From assembly GCA_035518815.1 (NCBI GenBank), contig DATIXG010000072.1, forward strand, positions 119,348-183,347: DNA of 64,000 nt, in the 5' to 3' direction. The translations under genes and the position numbers were made by a program. The notes beneath the pieces are model-generated. The model did not search any database and was not told where the DNA came from. It saw only the letters and a program-made list of their open reading frames with translations. Positions 4,958 to 53,220 of the stretch are shown piece by piece. Origin of the DNA: Gemmatimonadales bacterium. GTDB lineage: Bacteria > Gemmatimonadota > Gemmatimonadetes > Gemmatimonadales > GWC2-71-9. Positions within the stretch are counted from its first letter, which is position 1, and every line of letters begins with the position of its first letter.

Positions 4958-6064
4958 ATGCTCACACACGCCGTGCTGCTCGCTCAGCTGCTCGCCGTCG
5001 GCGGTCCGCCAACCCTCGCGACCACGTCCTACCGGCCGAGGATCGAGGTTTGGACCAACCGCGGCGAAGATCCTTATTCGAGTGGCGAGGCGGTTCGCGT
5101 GAGCTTCAAGACCGAGCGTGACGCCTTCGTCACATTGCTCCGCGTCGATACCGACGGTCGAATCCATATTCTCTTCCCTCGCGAGCCGTGGGGCGACAAC
5201 TTCGCAAGCGGCGGGCGAGTGTACGAGGTCGAGGGCGTAGGACGGTCCAGCGCGTTCGGTATCGATGACTATCCCGGCGAAGGATACATCTTCGCCATTG
5301 CGTCCGCCGATCCGTTCACCTATGACGGCATCGCGAGCGCCCAGCACTGGGACTACCGGCTCATCGGCGACGACGGCCAGATCCGGGGCGATCCCTACGC
5401 CGCACTCACCGACCTGGCCTCTCGTATGCTCCCCGAGAACTACCCCGACTGGGACTACGACGTCGTTCCCTACTACGTGCAGCAGCATTACCAGTATCCG
5501 CGCTTTTTGTGCTACGATTGCCACTCGTACGTAAGCTACCCGCGCTGGAATCCATACGACTATTCCTGCGTGCGTTTTCGCATCGTAGTGTTCGACGATC
5601 CCTATTACTACCCCTACCGCTACTACGGCGGTAGGCGAGTCGCCTTCACTCGCCCCTACCGGCCCGAGCCCCGATTCATCTTCAAGGACCGTGGCGCCAA
5701 CGACGCATTCGTGACCCGGGTGCGCGAGCGGCCCGTCAACGACGACCGGCGCCGCGACGTGGGTGTGCGGGGACGCGACCTGGGTGGTCCAGGCTTCGTG
5801 CCAGCACCTCGCGAGTCTCGTCGTGCGGCGCCGCCGTCGCAACCGAGCCCCCCGGAGCGGCGTCCGGCACCGCCGCCGCGCCAGGAACGCCCCCAGCCTC
5901 CGGACCAGCCGTCTCAGCGAGAGCGGCCAGCGCACCCGGATCACCCGGCGCCTCGGACAGCACCCGCATCGCCGCGGCAAGCGCCCAAGGCGGAACCCCA
6001 GCATCAGGGCGGGCGCGAATCCGGCAATGGACAGGAGCCGGAGCTGCGACGTCGCAGGCCCTGA
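4958..6064 (+). CDS. Secreted DUF4384-like protein with Tyr/Pro/Cys-rich middle and Pro/Arg-rich tail
   Basis: ORF 4787..6064. Start moved to ATG 4958, which has GGGAGG about 6 nt upstream and gives the signal-like MLTHAVLLAQLLAVGG. RIEVWTNRGEDPYSSGEAVRVSFKTERDAFVTLLRVDTDGRIHILFP resembles DUF4384. Confidence 0.7.
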   Translation: MLTHAVLLAQLLAVGGPPTLATTSYRPRIEVWTNRGEDPYSSGEAVRVSFKTERDAFVTLLRVDTDGRIHILFPREPWGDNFASGGRVYEVEGVGRSSAFGIDDYPGEGYIFAIASADPFTYDGIASAQHWDYRLIGDDGQIRGDPYAALTDLASRMLPENYPDWDYDVVPYYVQQHYQYPRFLCYDCHSYVSYPRWNPYDYSCVRFRIVVFDDPYYYPYRYYGGRRVAFTRPYRPEPRFIFKDRGANDAFVTRVRERPVNDDRRRDVGVRGRDLGGPGFVPAPRESRRAAPPSQPSPPERRPAPPPRQERPQPPDQPSQRERPAHPDHPAPRTAPASPRQAPKAEPQHQGGRESGNGQEPELRRRRP

Positions 6065-47065: not shown

Positions 47066-48115
47066 ATGCCCTTGCGCCCGCTTTATGGGCACCTCGCGCT
47101 GCGTGAGCGCCTAGGCGCCTCGATTCTAGCTGGCCGTCTGCCGCAGGCTATCCTCCTCGACGGTCCTCATGCCGTCGGGAAGCAGCGGCTGGCCCTTTGG
47201 ATCGCGCAAGCTCTGTTGTGCGAGGGCCGAGCGGACACCGGGGGGCAACCCTGCGGATCATGCCAGCCCTGCCGGCTGGTGCTCAGCCTGTCCCATCCCG
47301 ACGTCCATTGGTTCGTGCCGTTGGAGCCACCAAAGAAGACGGGGGACGCGGACCGGCAGGTTGAGATCGTGGAGGAGGCCCTGGGCGAGGAGGTCGCTGC
47401 CCGTCGCGAGCAGCCTTTGTATGGTCCGGTGCCCGGTCAGGCCAGCCATGGGATCGCCGCCATTCGGCTGCTGGGCCGCCGGCTGCGGCTGACCCCTGCC
47501 ATGGGCCGGTGGAAGGTATTCATTATTGGAGGAGCTGAGCGCCTCGCAGCTCAGGCAGCGAATCCTGAGGCGGCGAACGCCTTGCTCAAGGCCCTCGAGG
47601 AACCCCCGGCCGACGCCGTGGTAATCCTCGCAGCGGCCGAGCCAAGGACGCTGCCAGCGACGATCCTGTCTCGCGTAGTGCGTGTGCGCGTGGCACGCGT
47701 TCAAGACAGTGTCGTGACAGAATTCGCACAGCGCGAGCTGGGCCTGACATCGCAAAGTGAGGTGAATCAACGTGTTCGCCTCGCGGATGGGTGCATTGGC
47801 AGGCTCCTTGCTCTTGGGGGGCAGCGGGCCGACGGAACAGGCAAGTTGGCAGAAGCGTTTTTGGGCGCAGTGCGGCAAGGGCCAGCCGCCCGATTTGCCC
47901 TGGCCTTGGCGCAGCAGCCGTTTCAGGCCCGCGGGGGATTCACCGCGTTGCTGGACGACTTGCTAGAGCAGTTGCGCCACGAGGCCCGTGCCGGCGGTGA
48001 CAGTGGAAGAGTGGTAGCGGCAATGGCCCAGGTACTCGGCGCCCGCGAGCAAGCACAGGGGAACGTGAATCCCCAGCTCCTGACCGCCGTGATGGCGGAC
48101 GACCTGGGCGCTTGA
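47066..48115 (+). CDS. holB: DNA polymerase III delta-prime subunit
   Basis: 349 aa. Contains LLDGPHAVGKQRLALWIAQALLC, the zinc module CGSCQPCRLV, SHPDVHWF and FIIGGAERL. Confidence 0.8.
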   Translation: MPLRPLYGHLALRERLGASILAGRLPQAILLDGPHAVGKQRLALWIAQALLCEGRADTGGQPCGSCQPCRLVLSLSHPDVHWFVPLEPPKKTGDADRQVEIVEEALGEEVAARREQPLYGPVPGQASHGIAAIRLLGRRLRLTPAMGRWKVFIIGGAERLAAQAANPEAANALLKALEEPPADAVVILAAAEPRTLPATILSRVVRVRVARVQDSVVTEFAQRELGLTSQSEVNQRVRLADGCIGRLLALGGQRADGTGKLAEAFLGAVRQGPAARFALALAQQPFQARGGFTALLDDLLEQLRHEARAGGDSGRVVAAMAQVLGAREQAQGNVNPQLLTAVMADDLGA

Positions 48116-48187
48116 CCAGAAGTTGATGCGCGCGTCGTAGCATCCGCTGTGGATCCTGCGACGCACTCTATCACGAGGAGTATGACT

Positions 48188-48832
48188 ATGCGTACCAAGA
48201 CCCGGGGACTGGTGTTGCAGGGAGGGCTCGTCCTTCTCGGCGCCCTGGTCGTGAGCAGCGTCGGGGGGTGGGCGCGTCGAGCAACTGCCGACGATCAGCC
48301 GACCCCGGTGACGGCGCCCGTTCTGCTCAGCGAGTTGCGGACGCTGTCGCAGTCGCTCGAAGCCACCCGCGGCGAGTTGGCCGTGGCCCGGCTGCAGCTC
48401 GAGCGCGCAAACGCCATCATCGATTATTCGACGCACTACAACATCGCAGCAGATCTGGCGGCGGCGATCTACGACGTCGCGCTGTCGGAGGGGGTCGACC
48501 CCGGCCTGGCGTTCCGTCTGGTGAAGACGGAGTCGGGCTTCAATGTGAACGCAAAGAGTAAGGTCGGCGCCCTGGGCTTCACCCAGGTGTTGCCGAGCAC
48601 GGCGCGCCTGTACGAGCCGGGATTGACGAACAAGCAGCTGTTCGAGCGCGGCACCAACCTGCGCCTCGGGTTCCGTTACCTGCGGGACCTGCTCGAGCGC
48701 TACAACGGTAACCTGCGCCTCGCTCTCCTCGCGTACAACCGCGGGCCGGGCAAGGTCCAAGAGCTGCTCGATGCCGGGCGTGACCCGCAGAACGGGTACT
48801 CGACGGCGGTTCTGCGGGGTTACAAGCGGTAA
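48188..48832 (+). CDS. Lytic transglycosylase (SLT domain) protein
   Basis: ORF 48149..48832. ATG 48188 has GAGGAG about 7 nt upstream (ATG 48182 is also possible). Contains LVKTESGFNVNAKSKVGALGFTQVLPSTA and LLAYNRGPG. Confidence 0.8.
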   Translation: MRTKTRGLVLQGGLVLLGALVVSSVGGWARRATADDQPTPVTAPVLLSELRTLSQSLEATRGELAVARLQLERANAIIDYSTHYNIAADLAAAIYDVALSEGVDPGLAFRLVKTESGFNVNAKSKVGALGFTQVLPSTARLYEPGLTNKQLFERGTNLRLGFRYLRDLLERYNGNLRLALLAYNRGPGKVQELLDAGRDPQNGYSTAVLRGYKR

Positions 48833-48836
48833 GCGA

Positions 48837-50405
48837 CTACCTCGGCGGGATCTTGATGATCTGACCAGCGTGGATGACTGATCGCGTCGTCAGGTCGTTG
48901 TAGTCGAGCAGGGCTCCGAGGGACACCCCATAGCGGCGGGCGATTTCGCTCAAGGTCTCGCCGCTCTCCACCCGGTGATCTCCACCATCCACTGCGCTCC
49001 GCCCGGTCGTCGTCGGGCGGGCGCTGCGGGTGGTGTAGCGCGTCCGTGACTCGGGGGGCACGGACCACGCCCCGCCGGGCACCACCCGGCCGCTCATCGG
49101 GATGATGATCCGCTCTCCCACCTTCAACGCGTGCGGCTTCAGGCTCGGATTCGCGGTCTGTATCATCGGGACGGTCACGTGATAGCGACGCGCGATGTCC
49201 GACAGCGTCTGCCCGCGCGTCACGTAGTGATCGATGAACGTGATACGGGCGGTCGGCGGCAGCGTGTCGTACCGCGCGGCGACCTGCGTGCCGCGCCCCC
49301 GCGGCACGCGCACGGTGATGGCCCGGCCAGGGGGCGTGATGCCCCGGACGAATTGCGGATTCAGCTCCAGTAGGGCGTCCACGGTCGTGTCGGCAAGGCG
49401 GGCGAGCACGTCCAGCCCGGTGGCATCCTGTACGGAGATCTCATCGAACACGAGTGGTGCGAGCGGGCGAATGTCGTCGAACCCGTACCGCCCCGGCTGC
49501 TTGGCGATGAGGGATGCGGCAATCAATTTCGGCACGTAGTCCCGCGTCTCCCGTCGCAAGTAGCGCCGGTCAGCCAGCTGGAAGAAGGTGTGGTCGGTAA
49601 CGGAGTCCGACTCGCCAGGGAGGCGGTTCAGCCCCCGCTCCACGCGCCCAACTCCGGCATTGTACGCCGCGGCGGCGAGGTACACGCTGCCGCCCAGACG
49701 CTCCCGCAAGTCCGCCAGATAGGTGACGGCGGCCTGCGTGGCCTTGTAGGGATCACGCCGCTCGTCCACCCAGGGATCAACGGTCAGCCCGTAGAGCCGC
49801 CCGGTGGCCGCCATGAACTGCCACATGCCGACCGCTCGCGCCCGGCTGACTGCGGTGTTGGAGAGGCCGCTCTCGATGAGCGCCAGGTACACCAGGTCTT
49901 CCGGGAGCCGCTTCGCGCGCAGCTGCTCCCGGATCATGCCCTCGTAGCGGCCAAGCCGGGAAAGCCAGATCGCGAACCGATCCTGGGCGTCCACCTGGAA
50001 GAACTCGAGATACTCCAGTACGCGCCGGTTGGCAGCGAAGGTGGTGACGTCGATATCGAAGGTTGGCTCCCCTGACGGGGCAGCGCCGACAACTGCCCGT
50101 CCCTCGTTCGCCCCGAATAGCCGCACCGCCTCTCGTTCGACTTCCTCGCCCCGCACCGCGGGGGGAGGGGCCGACGTGTCACTCCGGAGCACGGAGGTCC
50201 CGGGCTGGTGCAGACTGTCCAGGATGGCTTCGTCGGCAGCCGAGTCGGACCGATCCCGCACGGCGGTCACCGGTTCCGCGGGTGAGGGGCTCTGCCCCAG
50301 CGGGCCTCCCTCGTGGCGCGAACCGCCGCACCCAGCGAGGCCGAGAACGACCACCAAGACCCCGGCGGCCCTCACCGGACTGAAAACCATGCCCCTCCTG
50401 CTCAT
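48837..50405 (-). CDS. MltD-like membrane-bound lytic murein transglycosylase lipoprotein with LysM repeats
   Basis: 522 aa. Lipobox VLGLAGCGG. Contains LIESGLSNTAVSRARAVGMWQFM and AAAAYNAG. C-terminal LysM units (YVTRGQTLSDIARRY.., HRVESGETLSEIARRYGV..). Confidence 0.85.
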   Translation of the reverse strand: MSRRGMVFSPVRAAGVLVVVLGLAGCGGSRHEGGPLGQSPSPAEPVTAVRDRSDSAADEAILDSLHQPGTSVLRSDTSAPPPAVRGEEVEREAVRLFGANEGRAVVGAAPSGEPTFDIDVTTFAANRRVLEYLEFFQVDAQDRFAIWLSRLGRYEGMIREQLRAKRLPEDLVYLALIESGLSNTAVSRARAVGMWQFMAATGRLYGLTVDPWVDERRDPYKATQAAVTYLADLRERLGGSVYLAAAAYNAGVGRVERGLNRLPGESDSVTDHTFFQLADRRYLRRETRDYVPKLIAASLIAKQPGRYGFDDIRPLAPLVFDEISVQDATGLDVLARLADTTVDALLELNPQFVRGITPPGRAITVRVPRGRGTQVAARYDTLPPTARITFIDHYVTRGQTLSDIARRYHVTVPMIQTANPSLKPHALKVGERIIIPMSGRVVPGGAWSVPPESRTRYTTRSARPTTTGRSAVDGGDHRVESGETLSEIARRYGVSLGALLDYNDLTTRSVIHAGQIIKIPPR

Positions 50406-50836
50406 CTCGAGTAGTAGTTCCCCAGGATTCGGTTAGTGGCGTTCAGGACAGCAAGCGCCGCGCCACGCGTCGCATCCCCTTCCGTGAGATAAGACCCCAC
50501 GAGACGGGACTGCGACCCGTCTGCGCGCGCGGAAAGCGACACGATGATGACGTTGGCATCGAACGCACGAACCGCCTTCACTCCAAGGATTTCGAACGCG
50601 AGCTTGGGCTTGACTGCTTTCTCGAGAGCCTGGACGGTCGCGGCAGCCGAGCAGCGAAGCTCCCCCGCCTGCGAGATCACGCCTTCGGCCTCCCCGACAA
50701 ACTCCCGGCCATCCGACCAGGACAGCACAACCCGGGACCGGCAGCGCCCGTTCGGGAGCCGCTCGAACCGGAAGTCATGAAACCGGAGACGCTCGGCCTG
50801 GCGGGGGCCTTCCGGGGGAGGAGCTGTCGCGGGCAC
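50402..50836 (-). CDS. Hypothetical protein (144 aa) with apparent internal duplication
   Basis: GTG start shares one nt with the upstream stop (TAGTG). Its stop overlaps the mltD-like ATG (ATGA). Two similar halves: ..RVVLSWSDGREFVGEAEG..CSAAATVQAL and ..IIVSLSARADGSQSRLVGSYLTEGD..GAALAVLNAT. Confidence 0.55.
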   Translation of the reverse strand: MPATAPPPEGPRQAERLRFHDFRFERLPNGRCRSRVVLSWSDGREFVGEAEGVISQAGELRCSAAATVQALEKAVKPKLAFEILGVKAVRAFDANVIIVSLSARADGSQSRLVGSYLTEGDATRGAALAVLNATNRILGNYYSR

Positions 50837-51084
50837 TAGTCGAACCGCACTTCGATCTGCTGCCGCGATGACGCATCTTGAGGCGCCTCAACGACATCCA
50901 CCTCGAGCCGCGGCCGGCCCTGGTCGTCCTGATCCGCGGAAACGACGAGGATGACGCCGCTGTCGAGCTCGACCTTCAGATGCCGCATGTCCGACCGCAC
51001 CGTGACCTCCCGTACGCCTTCCCCGCGCAACCGCGCGACCGCCGCAACGATGCGGCGCAGGTCGTGCAACCCCACGGGGCTCAT
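50836..51084 (-). CDS. Hypothetical protein (82 aa)
   Basis: ATGA overlap with the upstream ORF. GC3-rich codon usage like its neighbours. No recognisable motif. Confidence 0.5.
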   Translation of the reverse strand: MSPVGLHDLRRIVAAVARLRGEGVREVTVRSDMRHLKVELDSGVILVVSADQDDQGRPRLEVDVVEAPQDASSRQQIEVRFD

Positions 51085-51338
51085 GCCAGGCGGTTGGCGA
51101 GAAGCTGCGACAGGGCGGTGTCGGGAATCCGCTCAGCCTGGATGAACAGGGACGACTTGGACGTAGCCTCCAGCGGGTAAGGGGTCCATACCGCCTGCCC
51201 CCGCGGTTGCTGCGACGCCATGCGAAATGCCAGCACCAGCTGCCAGGATGCGGTGGTCGCCGTGCGCTCCGCGACGGCATCCACGTGCCACACCTGGTCG
51301 CCGTGGGCGATGACCCTCCAAGGCACGTCCCACCTCAC
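51081..51338 (-). CDS. Hypothetical protein (85 aa)
   Basis: First gene of a four-gene overlapping series. GTG start with no clear RBS. No recognisable motif. Confidence 0.45.
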   Translation of the reverse strand: MRWDVPWRVIAHGDQVWHVDAVAERTATTASWQLVLAFRMASQQPRGQAVWTPYPLEATSKSSLFIQAERIPDTALSQLLANRLA

Positions 51339-51456
51339 TGGGGTGTTGGCGCCCGAATATGTGTTCTAACCTAAAGTCCGGTCAATAGTTGGATGGACAG
51401 ACCCCGCCTAAACCGACCATTCTGCGGGGTGGGCGGAAGCACCCAAGTTGCGGAGT

Positions 51457-51483
51457 GGGGCGACTTAAGGGGTCAGTCGCCCC
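51457..51483 (-). terminator. Hairpin spanning the ilvE stop codon
   Basis: GGGGCGACT-(9 nt)-AGTCGCCCC, a perfect 9-bp stem. No strong U tract follows on the minus strand. Confidence 0.35.
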
Positions 51484-52336
51484 GGGTGGCGAGGGCCTTG
51501 AAGCGCCGGGCCAACTCCCGGGTCACCGGGCCAGGCACCCCCGCCCCGATGGTCCGAGCGTCTACTTTGGTGACCCCGATGACCTCGGCGGCCGTGCCCG
51601 TGAGGAAGACCTCATCCGCGGTGTAGAGATCATACCGGTTCAGCGGCACTTCCTCTGTGACGTAGGTTGCCTCCCGTGCCAGCTCGAGCACGGCGTCGCG
51701 GGTCACGCCGCGCAGGATTCCCGCGTAGACGGGCGGCGTCTTGATCGTTCCGTTCGTCACGACGAAGATGTTCTCACCACTCGCCTCCGCCACGAACCCG
51801 GCGGGGTCGAGCATGATGATGTCGTCGACGCCCGCAGCGATGCCTTCCACCTTGGCGAGGATGTGAGCCAAGTAGTTGAGGGACTTCACACGCGGTGATA
51901 CGCTCTCCCGATGATGAATCGGGGTCGCGGACGAGATGACGACCAGTCCCTTGTCGTAGCGGTCGGCTGGCCACAGCGCGATGTCGTCCACGATACAGAT
52001 GATCGATGGCTTGGGGCACTTGCGGGGATCGAGCCCAAGGTCGCCGACACCGCGGGTAACGATCAACCGGATGTAGCAGTCCTGGAGCCCGCTCTTCGCG
52101 ACCGCCTCCTCCATGAGGCGGCCCATCTCCTTGCGGGCCAGTGGGATCTCGAGCCACACCGCCTTTGCGGAGGCATAGAGGCGGTCGAGGTGTTTCTCGA
52201 CGCGAAAGATGCGCCGGTTGTACACCCGAATCCCTTCGAACACGCCGTCGCCGTACAGCAAACCGTGATCGAACACCGAGACCTTGGCGTTCGCCTTGTC
52301 GTAGTACTGCCCGTCAATCCAGATCGTCGCTGACAT
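51473..52336 (-). CDS. ilvE: Branched-chain amino acid aminotransferase (class IV)
   Basis: ORF 51473..52363. MSATIWIDGQYYDKANAKVSVFDHGLLYGDGVFEGIRVY at ATG 52336 gives 287 aa. GTG 52363 is an alternative start. Confidence 0.85.
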   Translation of the reverse strand: MSATIWIDGQYYDKANAKVSVFDHGLLYGDGVFEGIRVYNRRIFRVEKHLDRLYASAKAVWLEIPLARKEMGRLMEEAVAKSGLQDCYIRLIVTRGVGDLGLDPRKCPKPSIICIVDDIALWPADRYDKGLVVISSATPIHHRESVSPRVKSLNYLAHILAKVEGIAAGVDDIIMLDPAGFVAEASGENIFVVTNGTIKTPPVYAGILRGVTRDAVLELAREATYVTEEVPLNRYDLYTADEVFLTGTAAEVIGVTKVDARTIGAGVPGPVTRELARRFKALATRGD

Positions 52337-52368
52337 AGTTTGGGAAAGATGGTGCCGCGACACGGTCT

Positions 52369-52445: not shown

Positions 52446-52820
52446 GTGTGGACCAAGAGGCGATTCGATGCCATTCTGCGGCAGCGCTGCCCTGTGTGCC
52501 TCGAAGGCCCGATGTTTTCGGGGCCGTTCAGGATGGCCGTTCGGTGCCCCAGGTGCGGTCATCAGTTCGAGCGGGAGACGGGGTTCTTCCAGGGCGCCAT
52601 GTACGTCTCCTGGGCGCTCGGCGTGGGCACGTTCGCCGCGCTGGCGCTCGCGTCGAGTTGGCTTCTGGCCCCGCTGATCAGCCTGCCGCTGGCCTTGGCC
52701 GTCGCGCTCGGGGCCTATCTGCCCATCGTCCCGGTGATCTTTCGCTATTCGCGTGTGATCTGGGCCCACGTCAACATCGGGACGCGCGACACATCAGATG
52801 AACGGCCTGGCGAAGGGTAG
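52446..52820 (+). CDS. DUF983 domain membrane protein (zinc-ribbon + 2 TM)
   Basis: 124 aa. RCPVCLEGPMFSG....RCPRCGHQFERETGFFQGAMYVSW is the DUF983 pattern. Confidence 0.75.
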   Translation: MWTKRRFDAILRQRCPVCLEGPMFSGPFRMAVRCPRCGHQFERETGFFQGAMYVSWALGVGTFAALALASSWLLAPLISLPLALAVALGAYLPIVPVIFRYSRVIWAHVNIGTRDTSDERPGEG

Positions 52821-53077: not shown

Positions 53078-53150
53078 GTGACCCGGGCGGGGATCGAACC
53101 CGCGGCCTGCGGATTAAAAGTCCGCTGCTCTACCAACTGAGCTACCGGGT
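53078..53150 (-). tRNA. tRNA-Lys (anticodon TTT)
   Basis: Hand-folded from the reverse complement: acceptor GACCCGG/CCGGGTC, D arm GCTC-AGTTGGTA-GAGC, anticodon arm GCGGA-CTTTTAA-TCCGC, T arm GCGGG-TTCGATC-CCCGC, discriminator A. Confidence 0.9.
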
Positions 53151-53220
53151 CGCAACCAGACCAAACTAGTTGCCCTGCCCGGCTTTGTGCTACGGCATCG
53201 ACTGCGAACGAGATTGAGGT

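Follow-up and report, generated by a model that had tools for sequence, protein, structure and literature searches.

The allosteric domain of 2-isopropylmalate synthase (LeuA) and citramalate synthase (CimA) forms dimers, with the feedback amino acid bound where the two copies meet, whilst stand-alone ACT or RAM domain proteins consist of a small oligomerising alpha/beta module, usually found fused, which is presumed to act as an amino-acid sensor. Among lytic transglycosylases, MltD of Escherichia coli (family 1D) has a lipoprotein signal, an SLT domain with ES, GxxQ and AYNAG motifs and C-terminal LysM repeats; to our knowledge no genes like those described here stand ahead of mltD in that organism. 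The Gemmatimonadota are abundant in soil, and as far as we know almost nothing about the control of their cell wall has been tested. Here we analyse a stretch of 64,000 nucleotides (nt), referred to as the window, from a Gemmatimonadales bacterium (GenBank assembly GCA_035518815.1, contig DATIXG010000072.1, positions 119,348 to 183,347 of the forward strand). The minus strand of the window carries, in series, three small open reading frames (ORFs) of 85, 82 and 144 codons, here o85, o82 and o144, and a 522-codon gene for an MltD-like lytic transglycosylase (mltD; Table 1). This arrangement had been reported in an original prediction made from the sequence, and both the ORFs and their ATGA, TAGTG and ATGA junctions are exactly as it described.

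The reading proposed here is a composite one. Its first half is that the cassette is an operon with its own promoter, and its second that o144 is the centre of a ligand-sensing module tied to peptidoglycan turnover; we put the whole forward tentatively, as a reading that could well be right but which we doubt slightly more than we trust, with the uncertainty lying mostly in the second half. What was formerly a stretch of “hypothetical proteins” is now a defined unit with a candidate promoter, a conserved core and a protein whose confidently predicted fold suggests the sensing of small ligands.

Table 1. Features of the cassette, its neighbours and related loci. Positions are those of the window unless another locus is named; lengths of proteins are in amino acids (aa).
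Feature	Position	Strand	Details
Sigma-70-type promoter-like element	51356..51385	-	TTGACC-N18-CATATT; consensus scan of the 134-nt ilvE-o85 spacer
o85	51081..51326	-	81 aa, GTG start at 51326; open frame to 51338 gives 85 aa, also GTG
o82	50836..51084	-	82 aa, ATG start
o144	50402..50836	-	144 aa, GTG start
MltD-like transglycosylase	48837..50405	-	522 aa, ATG start, last gene of the unit; alternative ATG at 50390
ilvE, branched-chain amino acid aminotransferase	51473..52363	-	Upstream neighbour, outside the unit
holB	47066..48115	+	NCBIfam hit
Small membrane-anchored SLT-domain protein	48149..48832	+	NCBIfam hit
124-aa ORF	52446-52820	+	Divergent from ilvE
tRNA gene	53079-53151	-	Rfam RF00005, 77.9 bits
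Fused o144 form, L083	3358-4005
Fused o144 form, L084	3337-4026
Fused o144 form, L169	5829-6464
Direct duplication, L168	~5840-5900		In the o82 homolog, close to its 3' end

On comparative evidence, none of the three small ORFs is spurious, and each is a gene kept by purifying selection. Homologs in a large protein collection number 1911 for o144, 725 for o82 and 511 for o85, all labelled “hypothetical protein”, and every named source is Gemmatimonadales or a Gemmatimonadota metagenome-assembled genome; o82 and o85 match the loci VLV16_07420 and VLV16_07425 of one such genome at 99-100%. The median ratio of non-synonymous to synonymous substitution rates (dN/dS), taken against 56-80 species, is 0.13 for o85, 0.17 for o82, 0.16 for o144 and 0.20 for the transglycosylase, and the GC content at third codon positions (GC3) in the named frames of the trio is 0.75-0.84, a coding pattern like that of the flanking genes. 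Long spurious ORFs are common in all frames of DNA with 68% GC, which might suggest that the trio is a non-coding leader or a set of chance frames; this explanation is refuted, and retains virtually no probability, given the fixed length of homologs that number in the hundreds to thousands, the dN/dS values of 0.13-0.17, the correct GC3 periodicity and the confident fold of o144. The original prediction had staked itself on the existence of homologs, on selection and on there being no clean hit to a characterised family, and it came through all three checks. Neither a signal peptide nor a membrane helix would be expected in the trio, whose maximum 19-aa hydropathy is 0.55-1.55 as against 2.05 in both neighbouring transglycosylases; the earlier remark that no signal peptide was obvious is thus borne out, and the three proteins are predicted to be cytoplasmic and soluble.

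Conservation was assessed with one genome for each of 80 GTDB species (loci L001-L080), in all of which o144 is present by construction. The gene mltD was present in 78 loci and adjoined o144 in 78 of the 80, o85 was present in 77, and o82 in 56; the co-oriented packing of a cytoplasmic trio with an MltD-like gene, which had been regarded as an unexplained arrangement, is therefore real and conserved across related genomes. The trio is not an obligatory set, as had at first been implied, since o82 is missing in 24 of the 80 loci, where o85 abuts or overlaps o144 directly, and for this reason o82 is, as far as these loci indicate, an accessory and dispensable member of the cassette. The conserved core, by the same comparison, is o85, o144 and mltD. 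In a distant lineage (L166 and L168; GC 0.62, proteins 45-54% identical) the four-gene cassette follows DUF2064 and family 2 glycosyltransferase (GT2) genes, not ilvE. In L168 the o82 homolog is thrown out of frame close to its 3' end by a direct duplication of 19 bp (CGCGCCCGAGAAGCGTTCA x2), and no gene is called there; this homolog looks like a recent pseudogene, which would fit the dispensability of o82.

The candidate promoter of the cassette lies approximately 30 nt ahead of the start codon of o85. In related loci, 77/77 have an equivalent TTGAC-N18/19-(C)ATATT upstream of o85, with a median distance of 30 nt between the -10 and the start codon and the consensus CAACTATTGACxGGACTTGGGGTTAGxCCCATATTG; in the window the motif occurs once. 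The -35 and -10 are kept in distant lineages, including TTGAC...ATATT ahead of the cassette in L166 and L168, where the spacer differs. Within the Gemmatimonadales the upstream CAACTA and 14 nt of the promoter spacer (GGACTTGGGGTTAG) are also conserved, and a spacer as well conserved as this may hold an operator, although it is not kept in the distant lineages L166, L168, L104 and L060. The possibility that the spacer is a regulon motif was rejected on account of its single occurrence in the window and its loss from distant lineages. No RNA element in the ilvE-o85 spacer was matched in Rfam.

The presence of a conserved promoter upstream of o85 in every one of these 77 loci separates the cassette from ilvE, which is adjacent, at varying distance, in most Gemmatimonadales loci and present in 76 of the 80. 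It is not adjacent in L166, L168, L169, L089 and L093, and in the first three of these other genes take its place. Membership of ilvE in the unit was rejected on both counts, the promoter in between and the adjacency lost in other lineages, and the cassette is, as judged from its sequence context, an evolutionary and transcription unit of its own to which ilvE is merely a frequent neighbour.

An indication of a function comes from o144. An AlphaFold2 model built from a 35-sequence alignment has a predicted local distance difference test score (pLDDT) of 87.6 and a predicted template modelling score (pTM) of 0.81, and consists of strands at residues 18-26, 31-39 and 45-53 with a helix at 56-75, followed by strands at 80-91, 94-105 and 108-118 with a helix at 122-143. 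The two halves also align in register at the profile level (hhalign, E 5.7e-4), and the earlier suggestion that this protein is an internal duplication was accordingly well founded, the model being (beta-beta-beta-alpha)x2. In a Foldseek search against the PDB, the top matches were the regulatory domain of Mycobacterium tuberculosis LeuA (3hps, 3hpz, 3fig and 1sr9), with E 3e-5 to 3e-4, probability 1.0, query-normalised TM-scores (TMq) of 0.55-0.58 and 126-136 aligned columns, and the sixth was 3f6g, in which the regulatory domain of the Leptospira citramalate synthase has isoleucine bound. Ranks 1-4 and 6 together have probability 1.0 and TMq 0.48-0.58, whilst lower-ranked matches, to double-stranded-RNA-binding domain (dsRBD) proteins, RAD52, PURA and ribosomal protein S5, were partial in cover or had a TMq of ~0.2-0.4. 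In its predicted structure, o144 thus has the fold of the LeuA/CimA allosteric domain.

At the sequence level the relationship is fainter. The window o144 scores 14.1 bits (E 0.045) against Pfam PF08502, LeuA_dimer, where the gathering threshold is 24.9, and by the Pfam criterion it is not a member of that family. LeuA_dimer is the sole Pfam family to recur among 99 diverse relatives of o144, 22 of which hit it, in no case above threshold and at best with E 6.1e-5, and a profile alignment to the single sequence of the E. coli LeuA C-terminal domain falls in the expected register at a marginal E of 0.054. LeuA genes from which a profile of the regulatory domain could be built were sought in the recovered loci, and none was found. 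It appears plausible that o144 is a remote homolog of the LeuA/CimA allosteric domain. The two share a pair of beta-beta-beta-alpha units, the structural match extending over both repeats, and a similar C-terminal helix motif, A-x-x-A-x-L-N-x-x-N/x-R in o144 and SSAKAMVHVLNNI in E. coli LeuA. Unlike every characterised member, o144 is free-standing and has neither the catalytic TIM barrel nor the linker; proteins of the o144 family measure 130-215 aa and contain no HMGL-like catalytic domain. Its context is also a transglycosylase operon and not leucine biosynthesis, and dimer formation and ligand binding by o144 are predictions only. Stand-alone ACT and RAM proteins may be considered analogous in concept, although their fold is ferredoxin-like (beta-alpha-beta-beta-alpha-beta), which differs from the duplicated beta-beta-beta-alpha of o144, and they have no sequence relationship to it. 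A search of the available literature returned no description of the trio proteins or of a stand-alone LeuA_dimer protein.

The other two small proteins are less informative. o85 is a small soluble protein with four conserved tryptophans, for which AlphaFold2 gave no reliable model (pLDDT 46), and o82 is a small, acidic soluble protein with an isoelectric point (pI) of 5.3. Profile searches of Pfam, NCBIfam, PHROGs, PADLOC and PDB sequences gave no family match for either, the PDB hits being at chance level, so that the original statement that the trio holds no recognisable motif stands for o85 and o82 and has to be given up for o144, with its LeuA-type allosteric fold and sub-threshold LeuA_dimer hits. 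Weak Pfam resemblances of o82 to ProQ_C (3 of 17 members) and Robl_LC7 (Roadblock; 2 of 17), both at E ~0.03, are to be taken as leads only. The idea that o82 is a small heat-shock protein of the alpha-crystallin type (~90 aa) was not sustained, the match covering 22 residues at E 0.13-0.3 and none of 17 members giving a Pfam HSP20 hit, and descent of o85 and o82 from one half of o144 as paralogs was likewise rejected (E 0.08-0.54). Both proteins are, from the distribution of their homologs, restricted to the Gemmatimonadota.

The 522-aa protein encoded by the last gene of the unit has Pfam matches to SLT (86 bits, 1.5e-24) and to LysM in two copies (91 bits, 4.4e-26). It contains the motifs LIESGL (ES), GMWQF (GMWQ) and AAYNAG (AYNAG) and the lipobox LAGC, and therefore has the SLT domain with catalytic Glu-Ser, the LysM repeats and the lipoprotein signal that characterise the MltD type. 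It differs from E. coli MltD in its long low-complexity N-terminal linker. Against the NCBIfam model for MltD, NF008050, it scores 145.5 bits and does not reach the equivalog cut-off of 508, for which reason “MltD-like” is the appropriate name.

The start codons, and with them the junctions, deserve some care. Nearly all o85 homologs are 81 aa long and begin MPWRV, and the second GTG of the window gene has a GAGGTG Shine-Dalgarno sequence ahead of it; for these reasons the true start of o85 is probably this second GTG, giving a protein of 81 aa. The ATGA junctions of o85/o82 and of o144/transglycosylase are 4-nt overlaps and the TAGTG of o82/o144 is a 1-nt overlap, with no obvious Shine-Dalgarno sequence at the start of either o82 or o144. 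As a second transglycosylase ATG is placed 3 nt behind an AGGAGG, the overlap of this gene with o144 is plausible but not certain. The longer form of the transglycosylase adds the residues MSRRG, which make for a more typical, positively charged n-region of the signal peptide.

As in a translationally coupled operon, the genes lie on the same strand with overlaps or gaps below ~10 nt that are conserved across relatives, and the serial overlaps, as read from the sequence, fit coupled translation. The likeness to known translationally coupled gene pairs consists in the ATGA and TAGTG junctions and the lack of an obvious Shine-Dalgarno sequence at the o82 and o144 starts; the difference is that the first junction alone is conserved here and that coupling is a prediction from sequence. 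Amongst relatives, the 4-nt overlap from o85 to o82 is strictly conserved (54/55 loci), o82 and o144 mostly lie 9-10 nt apart, and o144 overlaps mltD by 4 nt in 40/77 loci according to our start calls. An NTGA-type overlap is possible in 8 of the 18 co-directional neighbour pairs of the window, by rough gene calling, and the overlap of stop and start codons is thus the default, ordinary form of operon packing in this genome. For prokaryotes in general, high fractions of ATGA and TGATG gene pairs, of the termination-reinitiation type, are reported (PMC6728339). The original argument, that the overlaps imply co-translation and probably a complex, was accordingly overstated: since overlaps are so common in this genome, the series of them is by itself no evidence for a complex.

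The family to which o144 belongs extends well beyond the cassette. A profile search of 1.84 billion representatives returned 941 o144 clusters at 50% identity (E <= 1e-3), of which 472 were found at E <= 1e-10. Almost no variation is seen at R16, R61, F92-D93 and G114, in the helix A129-x-L131-x-A133-x-N135-R136, or in the C-terminal motif AVLNATNRxLGN, which is likewise near-invariant. One subfamily, which includes proteins P0428-P0510, has members of ~210 aa with an extra N-terminal domain of ~75 aa (pattern LRxELEALPGVxRAxVD...). This domain matches no family, single members giving weak HMA or NapD hits.

The surroundings of these relatives vary among the approximately 170 loci sampled. The fused forms of L083 and L084 converge with a small SLT gene, followed by moaC, holB, an M23 peptidase gene and ftsEX, with no mltD downstream; those of L169 and L170 have an SLT and LysM gene downstream, followed by the same moaC, holB, M23 peptidase and ftsEX block. 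In L089 and L093 the o144 relatives are 50-53% identical and an MltD-like SLT and LysM gene lies downstream, the L093 protein having an N-terminal extension of ~50 residues. Lineages without o85 and o82 thus tend to carry an N-terminally extended o144 (~75 aa in L083, L084 and L169, shorter in L093), and this suggests, short of showing it, that o144 acts together with a partner module. Genes for cell-wall cleavage and for division are recurrent neighbours of o144. The linkage between o144 and lytic transglycosylases is, on this distribution, older than o85 and o82, yet it is not family-wide. The new finding is that stand-alone LeuA-type proteins make up a large family, as yet unannotated, which recurs beside lytic transglycosylases in one phylum.

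A possible mechanism can be outlined from these observations. Overlapping or closely spaced stop and start codons would give coupled and roughly proportional synthesis of the proteins from one mRNA, an ordinary economy of operons in this genome that does not point to a complex with MltD. o144 would dimerise and bind a small cytoplasmic metabolite, for which an amino acid, a peptidoglycan precursor or a recycling product are candidates, and o85, at times with o82, would be its partner or output. The module would then tune, or respond to, peptidoglycan turnover beside the co-expressed exported transglycosylase. It is this picture of o144 as a dimeric small-ligand sensor, partnered by o85 and sometimes o82 and tying a cytoplasmic metabolite to the turnover of peptidoglycan, that makes up the more speculative half of the composite. 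A stronger version, in which o144 founds a family of free-standing LeuA-type modules that the Gemmatimonadota have recruited, with the lineage-specific partners o85 and o82, to sense a peptidoglycan-derived or amino-acid metabolite in the cytoplasm and to control the expression or activity of the transglycosylase, appears improbable to us.

A number of results weigh against the ligand-sensing half and should be considered with it. The link to LeuA rests on one predicted model and on sub-threshold sequence hits, and a profile search of PDB sequences with o144 gave chance-level matches in which LeuA was not recovered. No particular effector of o144 is favoured by experiment or by ligand prediction, and no output domain, whether enzymatic or DNA-binding, can be recognised in the trio. 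As described above, o82 is dispensable, and when the ~75-aa N-terminal domain of the fused forms was compared with o82 and o85 (hhalign) as a Rosetta-stone test of partnership, no similarity was found (E 0.27-0.74). The remote o144 relatives of L163, L167, L171 and L173 have unrelated neighbours, with no transglycosylase amongst them. Finally, membership of an operon is by itself weak evidence for a shared function.

This last point leads to the most serious of the other explanations, namely that the trio has an unrelated cytoplasmic job, for example in amino-acid metabolism or its regulation, and shares the mltD transcript through compact operon packing. A LeuA-like domain would suit an amino-acid role, a true branched-chain aminotransferase gene lies upstream in 76/80 loci, the neighbours of the remote relatives are unrelated, and overlapping junctions are the norm (8/18 co-directional pairs; PMC6728339). 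Such an origin would not lead one to expect that the cassette stays with mltD where the upstream genes have been replaced, ilvE not being adjacent in the five loci named above, nor that a dedicated candidate promoter divides it from ilvE, nor that o144 relatives keep a transglycosylase beside them in lineages whose holB has only ~40-45% identity to that of the window. We regard this explanation as rather unlikely, though it is the one to which we give most weight after the composite itself. The ligand-sensing reading must also be set against a role in nucleic-acid binding, in which the beta-beta-beta-alpha units of o144 would resemble those of dsRBD, the N-domain of ribosomal S5 or RAD52 and the protein would act post-transcriptionally, for example on the operon mRNA. 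The lower-ranked Foldseek matches are of this kind and the window protein is basic, with a pI of 9.7; however, those matches are partial or of low TMq where LeuA covers both repeats at 0.55-0.58, the median pI of the family is 6.4, and LeuA_dimer is the only Pfam signal that recurs, all of which makes this role distinctly improbable.

Slightly less credible again is that the three proteins serve the transglycosylase from the cytoplasm as its own chaperones, export escorts or inhibitors, made beside their client by coupled translation. Many secretion chaperones are small and acidic, and o82 shares both properties, although this can serve as a lead only; the tight linkage and conserved gene order with mltD would also be accounted for. 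The MltD-like protein has, however, an ordinary lipoprotein signal peptide and should use the Sec/Lol route, L083 and L084 carry a fused o144 relative with no mltD downstream, and no known chaperone or inhibitor amongst the families searched resembles the trio. Nothing found here contradicts known biology, conserved small hypothetical genes ahead of a housekeeping enzyme being common.

The ligand-sensing reading of o144 has consequences whichever way it falls. If o144 binds a metabolite, the LeuA allosteric fold would be a portable sensor module and a family of nearly 1000 clusters at 50% identity would gain a functional handle, and were this sensor truly to control the transglycosylase, a new feedback circuit of the cell wall would have been built from a domain known solely as a switch for feedback inhibition of enzymes. 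If o144 binds none, the result is still useful in showing that the serial overlaps are ordinary operon packing in this genome.

Upstream of the cassette, ilvE is a true branched-chain aminotransferase by its score against TIGR01122 (306 bits, cut-off 245); its identification as a cell-wall D-amino-acid transaminase was rejected, as it passes this equivalog cut-off and fails that for D-amino-acid transaminase. On the other side, holB and the small SLT gene run towards the 3' end of the cassette from the opposite strand and are kept in 70 and 76 of the 80 loci, respectively. In deeper lineages (L083, L168 and L169) the converging block consists of ftsE-ftsX, an M23 (EnvC/PcsB-like) peptidase gene, holB, moaC and SLT. 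The combination of a fold-IV pyridoxal-phosphate enzyme, a lytic transglycosylase and holB recalls the pabC-mltG-tmk-holB arrangement of E. coli.

Beyond ilvE, the divergent 124-aa ORF has no NCBIfam match; its product has two CxxC pairs with two hydrophobic segments behind them, and from these features it looks like a zinc-ribbon membrane protein. A tRNA gene lies between the region of this ORF and the gene for a 689-aa beta-propeller-like protein.

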